Source of the DNA: Pseudomonadota bacterium
GTDB lineage: Bacteria > Pseudomonadota > Alphaproteobacteria > Rhizobiales > Xanthobacteraceae
DNA length: 64,000 nt
Direction: 5' to 3'
NCBI GenBank assembly: GCA_041694745.1
Contig: JBGFSD010000060.1
Span: 10,812 to 74,811, forward strand
Below are positions 49,943 through 59,823 of this stretch, piece after piece (positions within the stretch are counted from its first letter, which is position 1; each line of letters opens with the position of its first letter). The notes under the pieces were generated by a model that did not search any database, had not been told where the DNA came from, and saw only the letters and a list, made by a program, of their open reading frames with translations. The position numbers and the translations under genes were made by a program.

Positions 49943-51094
49943 ATGGATTTCGAGTTTTCCGAAGAGCAGCAACTTCTCAAGGACAGCATCGAGGGGCTGC
50001 TTACCGACAAATACGGCTTCGAACAGCGCAAGAAGATTCTCGATGGCGCGGACGGCTGGAGCCGCGAGATCTGGAAGCAATATGCCGAGCTCGGCATTCT
50101 CGGCCTGCCGTTCGCCGAAGAGCATGGCGGTATCGGCGGCGGCCCGGTCGAGACCATGATCGTGATGGAACAGATCGGCAAGGCGCTCGCGCTCGAGCCC
50201 TATCTGCCGACGGTCGTGCTCGCGGGCGGCTTCCTCCGCCGCTTCGGCACCGACGCACAGAAGAACAAGTACCTGCCGCAGATCGCCGAAGGCAAGATCA
50301 CCGGCGCGTTTGCGCATACCGAGCGCCAGTCGCGCTACGACCTGTTCGACGTGAAGACCACCGCGAAACCTTCCGGCAACGGATTTGCGCTCGACGGCCA
50401 GAAGAGCGTGGTGCTGAACGGCGATCAGGCGGATTTCGTCGTCGTCACTGCGCGCGTTTCCGGCAACCCGCGCGACCGCGACGGTCTCGGCCTGTTCATC
50501 GTCGATGCAAAGGCACCCGGTGTGACGCGCCGCGGCTATCGCACGGTCGACGGGCTCACCGCCGCCGAGATCCAGCTATCCGGCGTCAAGGTTGACGCAG
50601 ATCAAGCGATCGGCAAGCCGGGCGCGGCATATCCTCTGATCGAGCAGGTCGTGGACGACGGCATCGCGGCGCTGTGCGGCGAGGCGGTCGGCGTGCTCGC
50701 CGCGCTCACGGAAGCGACCACCGACTATCTGCGCACGCGCAAGCAGTTCGGCGTCAACATCGGTTCGTTTCAGGTGCTTCAGCATCGCAACGTGGAAATG
50801 CTGATCGCAGCAGAACAGGCGAAAAGCATGGCGTTTCTTGCCACCATGATGGTCAACGAGAAGGACGCCGTCGCACGCCGCAAGACGATTTCGGCGGCAA
50901 AGACTCAAATCGGCCGCTCGGCGCAATTCGTCGGCGAGCAGGCGATCCAGCTCCACGGCGGCATCGGCATGACCATGGAATTGAAAGTGGGCCACTGGTT
51001 CAAGCGCGCGACCGCGATCGACATCCAGTTCGGCGACGCCGATTATCACCTCGAACAATTCGGAAATATGGGCGGGTTTGAAACCGCGGCCTAA
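49943..51094 (+). CDS. acyl-CoA dehydrogenase family protein (likely partner subunit of the preceding one)
   Basis: ATG at 49943 ([20 protein letters not shown]...), 383 aa with an ACAD fold ([14 protein letters not shown]). Confidence 0.8.
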
Positions 51095-51107
51095 GGGAGA
51101 GAGAAAA

Positions 51108-52334
<1,227 letters not shown>

Positions 52335-52356
52335 TCGCAAGTCTCTAGTAACTCAA

Positions 52357-52544
52357 ACTCGTCATGGCCGGGCTCGTCCCGGCCATCTCGATTCCTGCGC
52401 CGCCTCCCCCTTGTCATCACCGGACGGCCGCGTCCCGCGCAAATCTGGAACTCGTCCTGGCCGGACTCGTCACGGCCATCCACGCCTTAGTGAATTGCAA
52501 CGCGGAAAGGCGTGGATGCCCGGCATAAAGCCGGGCATGACGAG
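52357..52544. repeat. two adjacent REP-like units of the 12389/22995 family
   Basis: ACTCGTCATGGCCGGGCTCGTCCCGGCCATC..., then ACTCGTCCTGGCCGGACTCGTCACGGCCATCCACGCC...GGCGTGGATGCCCGGCATAAAGCCGGGCATGACGAG. Confidence 0.7.
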
Positions 52545-52571
52545 AATAATTCGCAGCCTCACAAAATATTC

Positions 52572-52600
52572 TTGACTCATTCGATTCCTATGATTATATT
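52572..52600 (+). promoter_or_regulatory. near-consensus sigma70-type promoter TTGACT-17 nt-TATATT whose -10 is the IS target site
   Basis: TTGACT is at 52572-52577 and TATATT at 52595-52600. The 8-bp target duplication ATTATATT (52593-52600) overlaps the -10 element. Confidence 0.45.
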
Positions 52601-52757
52601 CGCAGTTATATACTTGACATAGCCACTACCGATTCGTAGTAGGCACGCGACAGGCCGGCGTGCGCGAAATGTCCCGTATATGGCTGCCAACCATAGAAAG
52701 GTTGGCCCATGTCGGGCGAATATTTCCGAGAGCCGACAGAAGAAGAAAAAGCGCTTC

Positions 52758-53426
52758 TTACTCCGCAGGCCCTGTCTGCGGGGGTGTCGGCATATTCGGA
52801 GTTTGTGGGGACAATGGCTCCAGAACTTTTAGTGACTCAAATTGTTCTGGCAGTCGTTCGAGTATCCAAGGATGAAACTCAGGCTTTAGGGGCCACGCCC
52901 AACCCGCCGTCTCGATCTGACAGCGGAAAATAATTCGTACCAGATCGCGCCCGTAGTTGCCGACCATCAGAATATCGTCTGCGATTTTGCGGAGTCTGTC
53001 GCGGTCAACAAAGTATTCGTTGAACTTATGTGGCGTGTCCTTCTTGGGCTTTTGAAGTTTGAGGTGGAAGGTGGTTTCGTTGCCGCTCTCCAGTTTCACG
53101 AGCGTAACAATTGAGTGCATCACAATATTTCGATTGTTGTAGGCTTGGCTGAAAGTCTTGGTGAAATGATTGAGCGCTCCAGCAAGCGGCTCAAATGATA
53201 TTTTGTTTTCGACAAAGCTATTGAAGGTGGCGATTCTCACCTCATTGTTGGCCTTACTGAAAACTATGGCCCCGGTCTTTTCGTCATCGAACCACGTTAG
53301 AAAAAGCGTCCGCAGAATATGCTCCATATAGTTGAACTGGAGCGCTATCATGCCTATTGCGTGGATCAATTCCTGGTGGCTGGTGCTATAGCTGCCATGC
53401 CAACTTTCAAGCTCGGGTTCGCTCAT
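52758..53426 (-). CDS. IS passenger protein A, hypothetical, with a HEPN-like RNxxxH motif
   Basis: I prefer the internal ATG (MSEPELESWHGSYSTSHQELIH..., 222 aa; coordinate derived from the track frame, +/-1). It looks all-helical, with AYNNRNIVMHS at residues 96-106, which fits the Rx4-6H HEPN signature. There is no clear SD and the N-terminus is uncertain. Confidence 0.5.
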   Translation of the reverse strand: MSEPELESWHGSYSTSHQELIHAIGMIALQFNYMEHILRTLFLTWFDDEKTGAIVFSKANNEVRIATFNSFVENKISFEPLAGALNHFTKTFSQAYNNRNIVMHSIVTLVKLESGNETTFHLKLQKPKKDTPHKFNEYFVDRDRLRKIADDILMVGNYGRDLVRIIFRCQIETAGWAWPLKPEFHPWILERLPEQFESLKVLEPLSPQTPNMPTPPQTGPAE

Positions 53427-53586
53427 GGTTAAAGAGACTCGCTCGAAAAAAGAGACTGAAAAGGTACGGGACGCAGCGCTATTGCGAGCGCTAATGAGCC
53501 CGCCCGCGCCCCACCAGCCTACCGCCAAAAAGAAGGTGAGTCGCAAGAAGAAAAAGGCTAAAGTCCTCAGAGGGGGATAGCGCTGG

Positions 53587-54366
53587 ATGGCTGACGCAGA
53601 TCGCGGCGGGATTAGATTCGAACTTAAGAATTCCAAGCCTGTTGATCTGCTCGATCTAACGACGGCACTTTCTGCTTTTGGCGATGCATATCAGGATTAC
53701 GTTGTCCGGTCCGGGTTCGACGGGGATCGGGGAAACGTTCGTCTTTATGTTCAAGAAATAAGAACCGGCTCCATCATCGCCCAGCTTTCGCAGTTGGCCG
53801 ATCAAGCATCGTTTGTGCTCGATCATATTGAGGTGGCCGCTGGCTTCATCTCCAATTTGAACGACGTGCTACAATACTTTCTGGGGCTTCCGAAGCCAGC
53901 CTCAGCCGAGGCTCCCACGAAGCGTCAGGCGCAACAGGCCATGGCAATTATGGAGCCTGTAGCAAAAGACAATGCTTCACAGCTGTTTTTGAACGTAAAC
54001 GTGCAGGGTGACGTACACTATCACCAACATATTTACACCTCGCAACAGGCCAATGCGATTCAGAATAGCGCTCGTCGCTATCTCGGGCCTCAATTGCCAA
54101 CGTCCCAGACCCTGCGCGATCAGTTGCTAACACTGTTCCAGGTTCGAATAGCAAAGGAAAAGGTTGGCTATAGGGGCGTTATTCAAACGGTGTCCTCGCG
54201 CCCCGTAATGCTGACGTGGGCGAGCGACGAGGTGAAGCAACAGATTATCGACTACCCAGAGAACCCGCTTCACAAGGTTTTCTTGGTTGATGTTGATATG
54301 ACGGCAGTGGACGGGAAACCGAGTCTATATCGCGTCCTTGATGTTAAGGACGTTTCCGACCGCTGA
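53587..54366 (+). CDS. IS passenger protein B, hypothetical (259 aa), divergent from passenger A
   Basis: The ATG is preceded by GAGGGGGA. I recognise no domain. Codon usage is AT-richer than in host genes. Confidence 0.5.
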   Translation: MADADRGGIRFELKNSKPVDLLDLTTALSAFGDAYQDYVVRSGFDGDRGNVRLYVQEIRTGSIIAQLSQLADQASFVLDHIEVAAGFISNLNDVLQYFLGLPKPASAEAPTKRQAQQAMAIMEPVAKDNASQLFLNVNVQGDVHYHQHIYTSQQANAIQNSARRYLGPQLPTSQTLRDQLLTLFQVRIAKEKVGYRGVIQTVSSRPVMLTWASDEVKQQIIDYPENPLHKVFLVDVDMTAVDGKPSLYRVLDVKDVSDR

Positions 54367-54410
54367 ACTTTCGCCAGCGCGCAAATCTAAGCGCGTTCTG
54401 CCTTCTGCAC

Positions 54411-55355
54411 TTAATTGCTACCAACTTGTCGATACGTGAGGCGCTTACCTTCAGCACCCTGAAGGGCAGTTACCGCACGTTCTCCATCGGTCACGCCGAG
54501 AGCGGAGCGGTTGTTGTAGCGAAATTCAAATTCGGTGAGGTAACGCTGTAGGTGCTGCTCCGAGCAGAACCCATAGACGCCCTTCATGCCTTTTTTGAAA
54601 TTGCCAAAGAAGTTTTCAACGTGGTTCGTGGTCTGGCCGTCTTTGCCGACATACTCACCACGACCGTTCCAGCCGTGGTGTACGGTTTTGTGATCGGCAA
54701 ACTCTTTGCCGGTCTGGACGTACAGACGGCTTTCGTCCGTATGCAATTCGCTATCACGCGAAGCATTGGTAACAAGAATGTTGCGGACGGTTTCGGCGTT
54801 CGCGGTCTTAACGTGGAACACGCGGGCTTTGCCCTTCGGTTCGACAAGAGCAACGATTGAGCGCTTGTGGCGATGGCCTTTCTTGTAGGACTTAGCCCGC
54901 TTGGAGTTGCCGTAATAGGTTTCGTCGGCCTGTACGATCTTGCCCTTGCCGCCTAGCGGGTCAGAGCCAGCCATACCCGGTTTCATGGCCTCACGGATGC
55001 GGTGAGCCATAAACCACGCGGTCTTGTAGGTAATGCCAAGCTGGCGATGCAGCTGGTGAGCGCTGATACCGCGCTTGCTGGATGCCATGAGGTGGAAGCC
55101 AAGCATCCACTTGGTCAGCGGAATTTTAGAGCGCTCAAAAACGCTGCCAACAGTCACAGTGAAGTGCTGGCGGCATGAATTGCACTGGAACAGACCCGGA
55201 CGGTGAGACTTACCTTCAAGGCGCTTGAGATTAGCGCCATCGGCCTCACCGCAATGCGGGCAGTAAGGACCGTTCGGCCAGCGGATGCCTTCGAGGTGCT
55301 CCCGCGCCTTGTTTTCATCGGTGAAGATCGGGTTGGTCAGTGCTGCGCTTGTCAT
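54411..55355 (-). CDS. IS1595 family transposase
   Basis: 314 aa with an N-terminal zinc ribbon CPHCG...CNSCRQHFTVTVGSVFE and an ISXO2-like DDE domain (VQADETYYG...). The start is 49 nt from the right inverted repeat. Confidence 0.9.
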   Translation of the reverse strand: MTSAALTNPIFTDENKAREHLEGIRWPNGPYCPHCGEADGANLKRLEGKSHRPGLFQCNSCRQHFTVTVGSVFERSKIPLTKWMLGFHLMASSKRGISAHQLHRQLGITYKTAWFMAHRIREAMKPGMAGSDPLGGKGKIVQADETYYGNSKRAKSYKKGHRHKRSIVALVEPKGKARVFHVKTANAETVRNILVTNASRDSELHTDESRLYVQTGKEFADHKTVHHGWNGRGEYVGKDGQTTNHVENFFGNFKKGMKGVYGFCSEQHLQRYLTEFEFRYNNRSALGVTDGERAVTALQGAEGKRLTYRQVGSN

Positions 55356-55924
55356 AGCGATTTTATACCCTCGGAAGGGTGGCTATGTCAAGTATATAAC
55401 TGCGATTATATTCCTATTCATTCCGGCCCATTAAGGGGCACGTCGCGCGGCGTGTTCGATGTGCGGGCCGGAAGCGGTGGCTGCGTGCAAGGCGTAACGC
55501 ACTTTGCGCGCAGCGGCTGAAGTTGCATGGTTCCGGCGAGCCTGCCGCTCGTCACAGGGCCTTTCTTGGCGGCTTTGCCTGGAACGCGTGCCAACGCAAG
55601 TACGGCAAGGCAGAGAAGGCCCGCCAGCGGAGGATAGATCGGTAAGTCCTCCGGGGATCATGCGAAGCAGGCCGTAACCCATCGCGCGCGGGACGCCGGA
55701 AGTGCTCCGGCTTTCGCGGTGACGACAACTCATCTGCACTTTCTCTCCTTTCGTGCAGATGGCCGTGGAGGACGGTAAATCCTCCGGCGTCCCCGCCGCC
55801 CTTAGCGCGCTTGGCACTTACGCCATTCGCGCAAATAGAAGGCGGCGCGAGCAAAACTCGGTGCTAAATGCGCGCGAGAAGGATTTACGCTGTTTGAAAA
55901 ACGAACCAGGAAACAACCGTGGCG

Positions 55925-56692
55925 CTACGGGGCGATCGTGACACCGCCGTCGACCACGATCACCTCGCCGGTGATGTAGCTCGCGGCCGGCGACGCCAGG
56001 AACGCGGCGACGCCGCCGATCTCGTGCGGCTCGCCGATGCGCTTAAGCGGCGTCTTGGTCTCGCGGTCCTTGCGCAGCTGCTCGTTCTCCCACAGCGCTC
56101 TTGCAAAATCGGTCTTGATCAGGCCGGGCGCGATGCAGTTCACGCGGATGTTCTTGTGGCCCCACTCCTGCGCATAGTTGCGCGCGAGCGCGAAATCGGC
56201 CGCTTTCGAGATGCCGTAGGTGCCGATCATCGGCGAGGCGCGCAGGCCCCCGATCGAAGACACGATGATGATCGCGCCGCCGCCCTGCTTCGCCATGTCG
56301 GGGATCGTGAGATTGCATAACCACACGTTGCTCTTCACGTTCGAGCCCATGATCTTGTCGAACGCCTCGTCGGAGATTTCGCTCATCGGGCCGAAGGCCG
56401 GATTGACCGCCGCATTGCAGACCAGAATGTCGATGCGGCCGTATTTCTCCTTGGTGCCTTTGACCAGCGCCTCGACCTCGTTCTTGCGCGAGATGTTGCA
56501 GGGGATGACATGCGCTTCGCCGCCGTCGGCGCGGATCGCCTTCGCGACCTCCTCGCAGGCATCCGCTTTGCGGCTGGACACGACGACCTTCGCGCCGAGC
56601 CCAGCCATGGTCTCCGCGATCGAGCGGCCGATGCCGCGGCTCGAACCCGTAATCAGCGCTACCTTGCCCGCGATGTCGAATGGCGATTTCAT
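55925..56692 (-). CDS. SDR family oxidoreductase
   Basis: Probable ATG at 56692 (MKSPFDIAGKVALITGSSRGIG), with the catalytic YGISKAA and an RBS GGAGG upstream. Confidence 0.85.
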   Translation of the reverse strand: MKSPFDIAGKVALITGSSRGIGRSIAETMAGLGAKVVVSSRKADACEEVAKAIRADGGEAHVIPCNISRKNEVEALVKGTKEKYGRIDILVCNAAVNPAFGPMSEISDEAFDKIMGSNVKSNVWLCNLTIPDMAKQGGGAIIIVSSIGGLRASPMIGTYGISKAADFALARNYAQEWGHKNIRVNCIAPGLIKTDFARALWENEQLRKDRETKTPLKRIGEPHEIGGVAAFLASPAASYITGEVIVVDGGVTIAP

Positions 56693-56842
56693 TCTCCGTT
56701 CCTCCATTGTCGCGGGATTCAATCAGTTTCGGTACGCTTGTCCACTTGCTTGGACCGCGTGCCGCACGGCAGAAGGTTGTGATGGCGCGGCTTCGCCGGT
56801 ACTGTCCGGCACGGCGAAAGCGCTTTCGGGGGAGGGGTTGGA

Positions 56843-58261
56843 ATGCGCAACCTGCGTAACGGTTTTTGCGTGGCTGCGCTCGGCCTCGGTTTCATGGTAA
56901 CGAACCCGGCCCAGGCTGCCGCCGCCGAGATCAACGGCGCCACGCTCGGGCTGGTCTGGGCGCTGCCGTTTGCCGGCATTCTGCTTTCGATCGCGCTGTT
57001 TCCCCTGCTCGCGCATCATTTCTGGGAGCATCACTTCGGGAAGATTTCCGCGTTCTGGGCTGTGCTGGTCCTGGTACCGCTGGCGCTGGTCTATGGCGTG
57101 ACGCCGGCAATTCACGCGCTCTCGCACACGGCCTTTCTCGAATACATCCCATTTATCCTCTTGTTGCTTGCGCTGTTCACGGTCGCAGGCGGTATCGTGA
57201 TCTCGGGCAACCTGCACGGCTCGCCCGCGACCAACACCGCGATTCTGGCCATCGGGACGGTGCTCGCGAGCATCATCGGCACCACCGGTGCCTCGATGGT
57301 GCTGATCCGTCCGATCATGCGGGCGAACGACGACCGCAAGCACAATGTGCATGTGATTGTCTTCTTCATCTTTCTCGTTTCCAACATCGGCGGCTCGCTC
57401 TCGCCGCTCGGCGATCCTCCGCTGTTTCTGGGCTTTCTGCGCGGCGTCGATTTCTTCTGGACCACCACGCATTTGCTTCCGGAAACCATGTTCTGCGCGG
57501 GCGTGCTGCTCGCCGGGTTTTTCGTGCTCGACACGATCATTTACCGGCGCGAAGGCCATCTGCCGAAAGACCCGACGCCGGACCGGGCGATCGGGATCAA
57601 GGGCGGCATCAATTTCGTGCTGATCTTCGTGATCATCGGCGCTATCCTGCTCAGCGCACGGCTGAAGCTCGGTACCGTCACCATCCTCGGCACCGAAGTC
57701 GCGATCCAGAACATCCTGCGCGATCTCACCATGGTCGCCGTCACGCTGGTCTCGCTTTGGCTCACGCCGAAGTCGAGCCACAAGGCGAACGGATTTTCCT
57801 GGGGACCGATTCAGGAGGTCGCGAAACTCTTCGCCGGCATCTTCATCACGATCATCCCGGTGCTCGCGATGCTGCAGGCCGGCCGCAACGGCGCGTTCGC
57901 GCCGCTCGTGGCACTCGTCTCGAACCCCGACGGCAGCCCGAACAACGTCGCCTATTTCTGGCTCACCGGAATCCTGTCGTCGTTCCTCGACAACGCGCCG
58001 ACCTATCTCGTGTTCTTCGAGCTGGCCGGCGGCGACCCGCAGCACTTGATGACCAAGGGCGCGCTGACGCTGACCGCGATTTCGGCAGGCGCGGTGTTCA
58101 TGGGCGCCAACACCTATATCGGCAACGCGCCGAACTTCATGGTCTATGCGATCGCGCGCAACGGCGGCGTGAAGATGCCGAGCTTCTTCGGCTACATGAT
58201 CTGGTCGTGCTGCATCCTCGTGCCGCTGTTCGTCGTCGCGACGTTCCTGTTCTTCCGCTGA
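56843..58261 (+). CDS. ion transporter superfamily permease (sodium:proton antiporter / CitMHS-ArsB-like)
   Basis: 472 aa, about 12 TM segments. The N-terminal signal-like segment and motif SNIGGSLSPLGDPPLFLGF are typical of proteins annotated as sodium:proton antiporter. The substrate is unknown. Confidence 0.7.
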   Translation: MRNLRNGFCVAALGLGFMVTNPAQAAAAEINGATLGLVWALPFAGILLSIALFPLLAHHFWEHHFGKISAFWAVLVLVPLALVYGVTPAIHALSHTAFLEYIPFILLLLALFTVAGGIVISGNLHGSPATNTAILAIGTVLASIIGTTGASMVLIRPIMRANDDRKHNVHVIVFFIFLVSNIGGSLSPLGDPPLFLGFLRGVDFFWTTTHLLPETMFCAGVLLAGFFVLDTIIYRREGHLPKDPTPDRAIGIKGGINFVLIFVIIGAILLSARLKLGTVTILGTEVAIQNILRDLTMVAVTLVSLWLTPKSSHKANGFSWGPIQEVAKLFAGIFITIIPVLAMLQAGRNGAFAPLVALVSNPDGSPNNVAYFWLTGILSSFLDNAPTYLVFFELAGGDPQHLMTKGALTLTAISAGAVFMGANTYIGNAPNFMVYAIARNGGVKMPSFFGYMIWSCCILVPLFVVATFLFFR

Positions 58262-58275
58262 TCAGGGCCGCATAA

Positions 58276-59823
58276 TCACGGGCGCATCGCCGCGGCGCGC
58301 GGGCCGGGCTTTCTGAGTTTCGCGGCAAGATTCGCGAACTCGCACAAGAGCGGCCTGGTCGCGCGCGGATCGATAATTTCTTCCGCCATGAAAGTTTCGG
58401 CGGTACGGAACGGCGATCGGAAGCGGTTGAGCCGCTCTTCAATTTCAGAGAGCAGCTCTTTCGGATCGGAGGATGCTTCAAGTTCGGCGCGATAGGCCGC
58501 CTCGATGCCGCCTTCGATCGGGAGCGAACCCCAGTCTCCCGAGGGCCAGCAGTAGCGGTAATGCAGCCGCGTGTGGTTCATGTGACCCGCGCCGGCAACG
58601 CCAAAACTTTTCCTGACCATGATCGAGCATTGCGGGACCTCGCTCTGGTACATCGCAGCGAGCGCCTTGGCGCCGTGACGGATTGTGCCCGCCTTCTCCG
58701 CTTCCGGTCCGATGATGAAGCCCGGAATATCGACGAAGTTCACGACCGGCAGATGAAAGGTGTTGGCGAGATCGACGAAGCGCTCGGCCTTGCGGGCGGC
58801 ATCCGCGGTCCAGGCGCCGCCATAGAAGAACGGATCGCTCGCCATCACCGCAACCGGCCAGCCGTCGAGACGCGCGAGCGCCGTGATCACCGGCCCGCCG
58901 TACTTGCGGGACATCTCGAAGAGCGAATCCTTGTCCACGACCGCGTTCAGGATCTTGCGCATGTCATAGACCTTGCGGCGGTCGCGCGGCACGGCGGAAA
59001 GCAGCGATTCCTCGCGCCGCTCCGGATCGTCCGATGGCTCGGCCCGCGCCGGCAACTCGTCGACCGACGCGGGAAGAAAGGAGAGGAACTTGCGCGCACG
59101 GGCGAAGGCTTCGTCTTCGCTGGCCACCACATCGTCGACCGCGCCGGCACGCGCGTGAATTTCCGCGCCGCCGAGTTCTTCCTTGGTCATGGTGACGCCG
59201 GTGCGCGCAACCACCGGCGGCCCCGCAATGAACATCTGCGAGATGCCCTGCACCATCACCGAGTAATGGCTCGAGACGAGCCGCGCTGCACCCAGGCCCG
59301 CGACCGATCCAAGGCCCAGCGACACCACCGGCACGGTGCCGAGATTCTTCACGACCCAGTCCCAGCCGGGATTGTGCGCCAAATACGTATAGCCGAGCAC
59401 CTCGATGGTCTTCACCGAACCGCCGCCGCCGGTGCCGTCGATGAGGCGCACGATCGGGAGCCGCAGTTCGTTCGCCATCTGCTCGGCATAGACCTGCTTC
59501 TGCATGATCGCGGCGTCGCCCGCCCCGCCCCGCACCGTGAAGTCGTCGCCGCCGACTACGACCGGCTTCGCATCGATCCTGCCACGGCCGAGCACGAAAT
59601 TCGCCGGCTGGAAATCGATCAGTTCGCCGTTTTCGCCGTATTTGCCCTTGCCCGCGATGGCGCCGACTTCATGAAAACTGTCCTTGTCGAGGAGGCGTCC
59701 GATGCGCTCGCGCACCGTGAGCTTGCCGGCGTCGCGATGGCGCTTCACCTTCTCCGCACCGCCCATCTTCTTCGCGAGTTCTTCGCGGCGGCGAAGCTCT
59801 TCGAGTTCTTTTTCCCAGCTCAT
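58276..59823 (-). CDS. acyl-CoA carboxylase carboxyltransferase (beta) subunit
   Basis: Internal ATG at 59823 (MSWEKELEELRRREELAKKMGG...), 515 aa, with carboxyl-transferase domain duplicates (GGDDFTVRGGAGD, AMYQSEVPQCSIMVRKSFGVAG). Confidence 0.85.
   Translation of the reverse strand: MSWEKELEELRRREELAKKMGGAEKVKRHRDAGKLTVRERIGRLLDKDSFHEVGAIAGKGKYGENGELIDFQPANFVLGRGRIDAKPVVVGGDDFTVRGGAGDAAIMQKQVYAEQMANELRLPIVRLIDGTGGGGSVKTIEVLGYTYLAHNPGWDWVVKNLGTVPVVSLGLGSVAGLGAARLVSSHYSVMVQGISQMFIAGPPVVARTGVTMTKEELGGAEIHARAGAVDDVVASEDEAFARARKFLSFLPASVDELPARAEPSDDPERREESLLSAVPRDRRKVYDMRKILNAVVDKDSLFEMSRKYGGPVITALARLDGWPVAVMASDPFFYGGAWTADAARKAERFVDLANTFHLPVVNFVDIPGFIIGPEAEKAGTIRHGAKALAAMYQSEVPQCSIMVRKSFGVAGAGHMNHTRLHYRYCWPSGDWGSLPIEGGIEAAYRAELEASSDPKELLSEIEERLNRFRSPFRTAETFMAEEIIDPRATRPLLCEFANLAAKLRKPGPRAAAMRP

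Follow-up and report, generated by a model that had tools for sequence, protein, structure and literature searches.

The stretch of DNA analysed here, hereafter the window, comprises 64,000 nucleotides (nt) of contig JBGFSD010000060.1 from an alphaproteobacterium of the Xanthobacteraceae, and it contains an autonomous 'transporter' insertion sequence (IS) of the IS1595 family, 2,804 bp in length, which carries three passenger genes besides its transposase. The complete unit, passengers included, was delivered to its present site by one very recent transposition. Taking all lines of evidence together, we consider it highly probable that this is a recent autonomous IS1595 transporter element with a conserved scaffold, swapped cargo and a payload of conflict genes. 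The passengers in the two exchangeable positions are called cargo A (slot 2) and cargo B (slot 1) below, and the third passenger, a small gene for a basic protein, lies between them. All positions follow the numbering of the window.

The element and its empty site

The element runs from repeat to repeat over 2,804 bp and encloses one intact IS1595-family transposase gene. An earlier reading of this DNA from its letters alone (the sequence-only reading) had described perfect 26-bp inverted repeats with the octamer ATTATATT at both ends. These were reproduced at the same coordinates: CGCAGTTATATACTTGACATAGCCAC occupies 52601-52626 and its exact reverse complement 55379-55404 (26/26 bp), and these are the only two matches to the repeat at up to 3 mismatches in the 64-kb window, where shuffled sequences give an expectation of 0. 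The window holds a single copy of the element, whose features are as follows.

52593-52600, no strand: left copy of the target-site duplication, ATTATATT, with two occurrences in the window and one in the empty site
52601-52626, plus strand: terminal inverted repeat far from the transposase; its first 24 nt are identical in the related elements L012, L017, L018 and L021-L025
52601-52730, no strand: conserved distal end region, consisting of the repeat and about 100 bp, the right boundary of slot 2
52758-53426, minus strand: cargo A, 222 amino acids (aa), of an unannotated, HEPN-like family with an invariant NRNxxxH motif (HMMER, alignment, AlphaFold2)
53115-53132, minus strand: codons R99-N-I-V-M-H104, the Rx4H motif of cargo A, at the end of the predicted helix 79-103
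53425-53580, plus strand: small basic protein gene, 51 aa (MVKETRSKKETEKVRDAALLRALMSPP followed by a Lys-rich tail), from its conserved frame and codon-position bias
53587-54366, plus strand: cargo B, 259 aa, phage accessory family phrog_9226 (PHROG profile)
54411-55355, minus strand: IS1595-family transposase, 314 aa, intact (Pfam, NCBIfam)
55379-55404, minus strand: terminal inverted repeat at the transposase end, the perfect partner of 52601-52626
55405-55412, no strand: right copy of the target-site duplication, ATTATATT, on the evidence given for the left copy

The empty site that the sequence-only reading had sought was found, with the predicted string exact, on a 764-kb metagenome contig of the Joint Genome Institute (L057), which was reached through the exact sequence of the neighbouring gene for a short-chain dehydrogenase (55925-56692, minus strand). 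Between L057 and the window the identity is 100% over 50000-52601 (2,602 bp) and over 55404-58500 (3,097 bp), with 0 mismatches in 5,699 bp of flanking DNA; the two alignments abut, and the empty-site string CTTGACTCATTCGATTCCTATGATTATATTCCTATTCATTCC is present with one ATTATATT. The insertion site is the intergenic spacer between two convergent host genes. Since L057 lacks the cargo, the repeats and the transposase together, the 2,804 bp represent one insertion event relative to an otherwise identical strain, and the identity of 5.7 kb of flank together with the exact empty site shows that the insertion is very recent, as the sequence-only reading had supposed from the intact repeats and duplication. 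Three findings that might have spoken against that reading did not appear: the cargo genes are missing from L057 along with the repeats and the transposase; the 8-bp flanks do not belong to a longer native repeat, for L057 has a single ATTATATT; and there is no end of the IS near 54.4 kb, the best internal repeat-like matches having 10 mismatches in 26 positions, which is the level of shuffled sequence. Every complete close relative also spans from repeat to repeat around its cargo. The further claim that the cassette can move as a unit is supported by the empty site, but the mobility of this exact cargo combination, having been seen once, rests on a single insertion event.

The element is poorer in guanine and cytosine (GC) than its surroundings, again as noted before, and thus foreign in composition: its GC content is 0.526 versus 0.623-0.627 in the flanks, and GC at third codon positions is 0.57-0.65 in the genes of the element versus 0.86-0.89 in both neighbouring host genes. 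A search of 52000-56200 against Rfam gave no match, nor did megablast of the whole element against plasmids. A candidate 'subterminal repeat' at 52663 was rejected because its similarity lies at chance level. Two observations concern the surroundings. Three short metagenome contigs which are 100% identical to the window (L058, L060 and L061) all end at 55640, 228 bp to the right of the element, a shared stop for which a repeat or a polymorphism between strains may be responsible. Immediately to the left of the insertion, the spacer (52358-52544) contains GC-rich imperfect palindromes resembling repetitive extragenic palindromic sequences, for example CTCGTCATGGCCGGGCTCGTCCCGGCCATC.

Transposase and membership in the IS1595 family

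The only transposase was assigned by the sequence-only reading to the IS1595 family, with a zinc ribbon and an ISXO2-like DDE domain, and the profile searches bear this out above the cut-offs of Pfam and NCBIfam. The protein matches Zn_ribbon_IS1595 (PF12760, E 2.8e-13, 50 bits versus a cut-off of 25.4), DDE_Tnp_IS1595 (PF12762, ISXO2-like, E 1.2e-30, 107 bits versus a cut-off of 27) and NF033547, 'IS1595 family transposase' (E 1.2e-55, 188.7 bits versus a cut-off of 75). Its zinc-ribbon residues are CPHC at position 32 and CNSC at position 58, and the candidate catalytic residues are D144 (in QADET), D207 (in HTDES) and E247 (in HVENF). It is 95% identical to the transposase P0123, while tblastn against plasmids returned a best match of just 61% identity and no ISfinder-style name. 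Thus, the element shows all the features of the IS1595 family that could be looked for in it, namely the DDE domain, the zinc ribbon, the inverted repeats and the 8-bp duplication.

IS1595 elements with passenger genes have been termed 'transporter IS' (Siguier, Gagnevin & Chandler 2009, as cited in PMC3129680 and PMC4611040), and the present element resembles them in its single transposase with zinc ribbon and ISXO2-like DDE domain, its inverted repeats, its 8-bp duplication and the genes unrelated to transposition inside the repeats. Its three intact passenger open reading frames (ORFs) are absent together with the transposase from the empty-site allele. As passenger-carrying IS1595 elements were described in 2009, this kind of element is already known. 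What differs in the present lineage is a fixed scaffold with two cargo slots around the small basic-protein gene, and a recurrent HEPN-like passenger.

The ends of the element, CGCAGTTATAT (and GGnAATTATATACTTG in relatives), resemble what we take to be the 'ggnnatTAT' ends of ISNwi1/ISNwi1+, which makes that subgroup a tentative lead. The traits presumably shared with ISNwi1(+) are DDE residues followed by K, the 8-bp duplication, alphaproteobacterial hosts and '+' forms of 1.7-4.7 kb.

A conserved scaffold with swapped cargo

Scans for the exact repeat in the genome and metagenome collections gave only 2 and 4 further loci, the species representatives scanned not including the source genome. 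The following sister elements illustrate the lineage.

L012 / L014: 2,910 bp; transposase identity in the 85-95% range; 26-bp repeats with 0-1 mismatch and an own 8-bp duplication; cargo of 104-aa, 114-aa and 257-aa proteins
L017: 2,486 bp; transposase identity in the 85-95% range; repeats with 0-1 mismatch and an own 8-bp duplication; cargo of a ClpP-like protease and a 202-aa protein
L018: 2,503 bp; transposase identity in the 85-95% range; repeats with 0 mismatches and an own 8-bp duplication; cargo of a ClpP-like protease and a 188-aa protein
L019, from a metagenome-assembled genome of the Xanthobacteraceae: 2,620 bp; transposase identity in the 85-95% range; repeats with 0 mismatches at the transposase end and 3 at the distal end, and an own 8-bp duplication; cargo of a Zn-ribbon-DUF4145 protein and a 184-aa protein

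Small membrane proteins also occur among the cargo of the sister elements. In L019 the 24 nt of the repeat shared with the other elements are kept at the transposase-proximal end only. More distant elements are L036 (transposase 73% identical, 2,078 bp) and L028 (69%, 1,965 bp). Altogether, this layout from repeat to repeat recurs, with duplications of their own, in eight further elements, whether complete or partial.

Identity at the DNA level between the window element and its sisters is confined to three blocks. The first is the transposase end (about 1,040 bp, 85-92.5% identity), the second is internal (about 75-130 bp) and corresponds to the small gene (53423-53549 in the window), and the third is distal (50-137 bp, 52595-52730 in the window). 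The distal end region is 93% identical over about 130 bp to that of L012, L014 and L022, where the neighbouring genes are unrelated. Read in the orientation of the transposase, the scaffold consists of the repeat, the transposase block (about 1,040 bp), slot 1, the small basic gene, slot 2, the conserved distal end and the other repeat; the gene in slot 2 starts back-to-back with the small gene in the tetranucleotide CATG. Since identity is limited to the three blocks, the cargo occupies two slots bounded by conserved DNA, and near-identical scaffolds hold unrelated genes in both of them. Homologous recombination at the conserved blocks has presumably shuffled the cargo among the elements.

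In this respect the lineage is reminiscent of integron gene cassettes, small single-gene modules which often encode toxins or defence genes and are swapped within a conserved mobile scaffold (PMC3710099). The element differs from them in having no integrase frame, its sole recombinase being the DDE transposase, and in having two slots only, which appear to be bounded by conserved blocks of a DDE transposon backbone and not by repeated sites, although no search for attC-type sites was made.

Two assembly observations touch on the sister elements. At L025 (1330-1443) an element with this type of repeat abuts the end of a different IS1595-family element, whose transposase is 54% identical, so that two related IS use the same TATATATT target. 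The contigs of other close transposase relatives (L015, L016 and the contig of P0128, 1,080 bp) break just after the transposase gene, as would be expected of an assembly if a single sample contained several cargo variants side by side.

The small basic protein gene

The sequence-only reading had counted two ORFs outside the transposase, which has to be corrected to three genes, the third being an ORF of 51 aa that lies between the divergent pair. Its ATG overlaps the ATG of cargo A on the opposite strand head-to-head in CATG, and its stop codon lies 6 nt before the ATG of cargo B, upstream of which stands GAGGGGGA. Seven sister elements keep the frame open, and six of them have an intact ORF with its ATG (L019 lacks the ATG and would start at TTG). 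Over 29 aligned codons the variable columns number 6/4/22 at codon positions 1/2/3, and in the C-terminal tail the Lys/Arg-rich composition is kept while the sequence changes. The open frame in 7 elements, the bias towards the third position and the kept composition of the tail together indicate that the 51-aa ORF is a real gene, and the substitution pattern points to purifying selection on it. For the same reasons, namely substitutions at third codon positions and a tail whose composition is kept without its sequence, we rejected the idea that the internal conserved block formed by the DNA around the gene is non-coding DNA or RNA.

The protein begins with M-x-K-D/E-T-R-x-K-K-E-T-E-K-V-R-D-A-A-L-L-R-A-L-M-S-P-P, followed by the basic tail, and is 64-70% identical across the close relatives. 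The gene is also present in L036 and L028, in the same head-to-head CATG arrangement with a partner gene, and hmmsearch detected it in 6/21 further cargo-bearing elements. It thus appears from its distribution to be a hallmark gene of the lineage. Searches of Pfam, NCBIfam and PDB sequences with the small protein gave no match, and searches with it and nine passengers of sister elements against PADLOC-DB v2 (E <= 0.1) gave weak matches only, with E >= 0.017. The protein could act as a nucleic-acid-binding regulator or as the partner of the gene facing it.

Cargo A, a HEPN-like protein in slot 2

A word-based protein search with cargo A found cargo A alone, and exhaustive HMMER searches recovered 155 relatives of about 200 aa with about 25-39% identity. 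The closest relative anywhere is P0242 (36-39% identical), which is located in the same slot of the sister element L021. In an alignment of 61 sequences G25, E35, R99 and H104 are invariant, while N98 and N100 are nearly so (N100 in at least 90% of the 61 sequences), which gives the motif NRNxxxH; cargo A of the window retains every invariant residue of the family. The AlphaFold2 model has a mean predicted local distance difference test score (pLDDT) of 92 and shows helices at 15-43, 49-75, 79-103 and 142-172 and a three-stranded insertion after the motif. E35 is placed in the predicted helix 15-43 and is part of E-x3-R in the window protein, R99 and N100 end the helix 79-103, and H104 lies just after it. 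The family conservation supports the 222-aa gene model. A 292-aa version starting at TTG was rejected, since its extension is closed in both L017 and L018 and the members of the family begin at the ATG, and an ORF of 74 aa antisense to cargo A (52709-52933) was rejected as a gene, only its first few codons lying in conserved end DNA.

HEPN RNases have an Rx4-6H motif at the end of helix 3, a polar N/D/H after the R and an acidic residue upstream, and they tolerate inserts after the motif (Anantharaman et al., PMC3710099). As judged from the motif and the predicted topology, all four features appear to be present in cargo A, which probably belongs to the HEPN superfamily and would then act as a HEPN-type RNase-like toxin or abortive-infection effector. 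Compared with known proteins of this kind (ApeA, AbiV and the integron-cassette HEPN protein of PDB 3jrt; PMC3710099), cargo A shares the Rx4H motif with its N, the invariant upstream Glu, the predicted all-alpha core with the motif at a helix end and the residence in a small mobile element, but it differs in having no significant match to a HEPN family, in its large beta insertion after the motif and in the C-terminal peptide LPxKPxxPxxL. This proline-rich peptide is conserved in the family (52758-52860 in the window) and could be a docking motif.

The search results are otherwise negative. None of the 61 family members matches Pfam, and cargo A has no match among PDB sequences and nothing significant in NCBIfam; Foldseek of the model against PDB and BFVD gave nothing at E <= 0.001, and hhalign of the cargo A profile against proteins of sister elements was not significant. 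The partner genes of L014, L017, L018 and L028 also encode RNxxxH motifs, and the forms seen in sister elements are FRNFITH, IRNKFAH, NRNTLFH and LRNVFTH. One of these partners, that of L018, matches the cargo A profile with E 6e-8 in a small database, and other partners have sub-threshold matches to HEPN_Cthe2314, HEPN_RiboL-PSP, MtlR and Csx1.

Cargo B, a phage accessory gene in slot 1

Cargo B matches phrog_9226 with E 5.7e-39, residues 10-256 aligning to positions 15-257 of the 261-position profile. This is its only significant match, as nothing significant was found in Pfam, NCBIfam or PDB sequences, and Foldseek of its AlphaFold2 model (pLDDT 89) against PDB gave no match at E <= 0.001. 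There are 138 homologues, the majority of them from alphaproteobacterial metagenome bins. The homologue in L011 adjoins a portal gene, and the accessory region of Bordetella phage PHB09 contains a homologue that has a BrnT toxin gene next to it and lies upstream of the terminase. Furthermore, 20 homologues occur in IMG/VR contigs; Abi_C, GmrSD, Bro-N, an IS5 transposase and the large terminase are among the neighbours sampled there. In two of the viral contigs (L046:5789-6550 and L042:5864-7540) the immediate neighbours of the homologues are a protein with an Abi_C domain and a restriction enzyme of the GmrSD type. On the basis of these phage and prophage contexts beside defence genes, cargo B is best read as a prophage accessory gene of the 'moron' type which keeps company with defence genes. 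A role as a phage structural protein, considered on account of a weak NCBIfam LAPAL match and the portal gene of L011, is not supported given the accessory-region position in PHB09 and the viral contigs.

Residue 195 of the window copy is Tyr, where all 52 aligned homologues have Asp. The position lies within the most conserved stretch of the family, in which the window copy also has a 1-aa deletion, and there are three further departures from conserved columns, while the closest relatives have 0-1.

Target preference and promoter-like signals

The left ATTATATT is preceded by G and the right copy is followed by C, which are also the element's last and first bases, respectively; the same match is seen in all close-clade relatives with both ends resolved. 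Since the flanking G and C equal the terminal bases, duplications of 8 bp and 10 bp are inseparable from the sequence alone. Of the earlier claim of an 8-bp duplication, the doubling of ATTATATT in the window against the single copy in L057 therefore stands, while a length of 10 bp is equally compatible. In 20 outward flanks of the close clade the consensus, read away from the IS, is AATATATT followed by CCTA(T), with C at +9 in 20/20, C at +10 in 17/20 and T at +11 in 15/19. Judging from these flanks, the close clade targets an AT-rich palindrome composed of (A)TAGG, AATATATT and CCTA(T), i.e. (A)TAGG-N8-CCTA(T).

Two promoter-like sequences were annotated at the ends of the element.

52572-52600, plus strand: host promoter-like sequence TTGACT, 17 nt, TATATT, whose -10-like box is the left target copy (promoter scan, 10/12 consensus matches)
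55356-55391, minus strand: promoter-like sequence of the transposase gene, TTGACA (in the repeat), 18 nt, TATAAA, with the ATG 6 nt later (read from the sequence)

The host sequence is intact in L057; given its place between two convergent genes, it is not taken to indicate a function. The sequence before the transposase gene was not listed by the promoter scan, its -10 box ending in A, and the messenger RNA of the transposase would be nearly leaderless. In addition, both junctions (52593-52620 and 55385-55412) contain outward promoter-like sequences, ATGTCA-16-TATAAT and ATGTCA-16-TATATT, in which the -35-like box comes from the repeat and the -10-like box from the preferred target.

Passengers across the wider lineage

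Scanning viral contigs with the transposase yielded 80 loci with 40-63% identity, and 23 of them could be delimited by a 16-nt inverted repeat (<=2 mismatches) and a perfect 8-bp duplication; the ORFs were called mechanically. The ends of the delimited relatives are GGnAATTATATACTTG. Of the 23, 21 have lengths of 2.1-4.2 kb and contain passengers, so the view of the sequence-only reading that passenger-bearing elements are a minority does not hold for this sub-lineage. In 13/21 cargo-bearing relatives R[NDH]xxxH occurs in a passenger of no fewer than 100 aa, and the motif is present in 14/44 passenger ORFs versus 7/135 flanking ORFs (Fisher p = 1.5e-5). The cargo A profile recognises six of the passengers, and the small basic gene is found in six elements; their relative placement agrees with that in the window. 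The passengers recognisable by Pfam are N6 and N4 DNA methylases, type I specificity, Mrr, HSDR_N, inactive-REase, PIN and MtlR.

Discussion

The payload of the element would consist of conflict-system genes. Several points weigh against this, or against other parts of the proposed explanation. The exact cargo combination was found only once. The exchange of cargo by recombination is a deduction from mosaic identity. The target sites of the distant relatives are not AT-rich palindromes, so that the target preference holds for the close clade only. Cargo A has no significant profile or structure match to any HEPN family. No match to PADLOC-DB v2 was obtained at E <= 1 with cargo A, cargo B or the 74-aa ORF, and none of the matches of the sister cargo was significant. 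The cargo B homologues in L009 and L010 are lone genes between housekeeping genes, and the window copy of cargo B, judging from D195Y, may be inactive, impaired or altered. Moreover, the survey loci are viral or prophage contigs, which may introduce a bias to defence-rich neighbourhoods.

Among the other explanations, it is somewhat unlikely that the small basic protein, together with the gene facing it (here cargo A), constitutes an addiction or toxin-antidote module which stabilises the element by punishing its loss or deletion and has no anti-phage role, with cargo B as an unrelated hitch-hiker. The head-to-head overlapping starts are kept down to 69% transposase identity, the partner is usually an RNxxxH protein, and HEPN proteins are common toxins which also occur in integron cassettes (PMC3710099). 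Against this, a binding antitoxin is expected to co-vary with its toxin, whereas the strongly basic small protein is 64-70% identical in close relatives whose partners are too diverged for BLAST or unrelated (L019, L036); the genes are divergent and not co-transcribed as in type II systems; and Pfam, NCBIfam and PADLOC gave no match to a toxin-antitoxin family.

It is unlikely that the small protein, possibly with the HEPN-like partner, serves as an accessory or regulatory factor of transposition, so that only slot 1 would hold true cargo. Such a role is suggested by the fact that the small gene and its DNA are conserved together with the backbone, in contrast to their varying neighbours, by the basic tail, which points to nucleic-acid binding, and by the recurrence of the gene in distant relatives. 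On the other side, hmmsearch found the gene in just the 6 of 21 distant cargo-bearing relatives given above, the small protein resembles no known DNA-binding or transposition protein in the Pfam, NCBIfam and PDB searches, and most IS1595-family elements are reported in ISfinder to move with a single ORF.

We regard it as very unlikely that the passengers are neutral or decaying hitch-hikers without current function. The substitution of an Asp that is invariant in 52 homologues and the three other departures in cargo B would fit such a history, as would the lack of a family annotation for any of the three passengers; but all three ORFs are intact, cargo A keeps the invariants of its family, the small ORF shows purifying selection, too little time has passed since the insertion for decay in situ, and the same classes of passengers recur across the lineage. 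Finally, a plain 1-kb IS beside native or island DNA, with a left repeat that is solo or there by chance, is refuted by L057, in which exactly the repeat-to-repeat segment and one copy of the duplication are missing, as well as by the want of an internal repeat-like end and by the eight other elements with the same layout.

Returning to the transporter element with swapped conflict-gene cargo, it is quite conceivable, if somewhat short of probable, that the payload helps the element to be retained because it protects or addicts the host. A bolder and rather doubtful extension is that this IS1595 sub-lineage is a miniature vehicle for conflict genes, the core of which would be a basic protein of about 50 aa facing a fast-evolving HEPN-like RNase, together with a swap slot for restriction-modification, protease or prophage genes. 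That core might be a new toxin/regulator or single-effector defence module, or else an unrecognised accessory system of IS1595 transposition, and cargo A and cargo B would represent two new families of proteins of phage conflict. The literature searched contains no paper connecting IS1595 with HEPN or defence genes.

The element together with its exact empty site offers a clean natural case in which a small IS has moved its passengers as one unit. For the annotation of genomes it is relevant that routine pipelines would miss both the conserved 51-aa gene and the boundaries of the IS. The survey suggests that elements of about 2-4 kb routinely ferry toxin-like, restriction-modification and prophage accessory genes, and this pattern of payload deserves focused follow-up. 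If true, such elements would be an overlooked, very small vehicle for defence and conflict genes and a source of candidate systems, such as the NRNxxxH family, phrog_9226 and the 50-aa basic protein.

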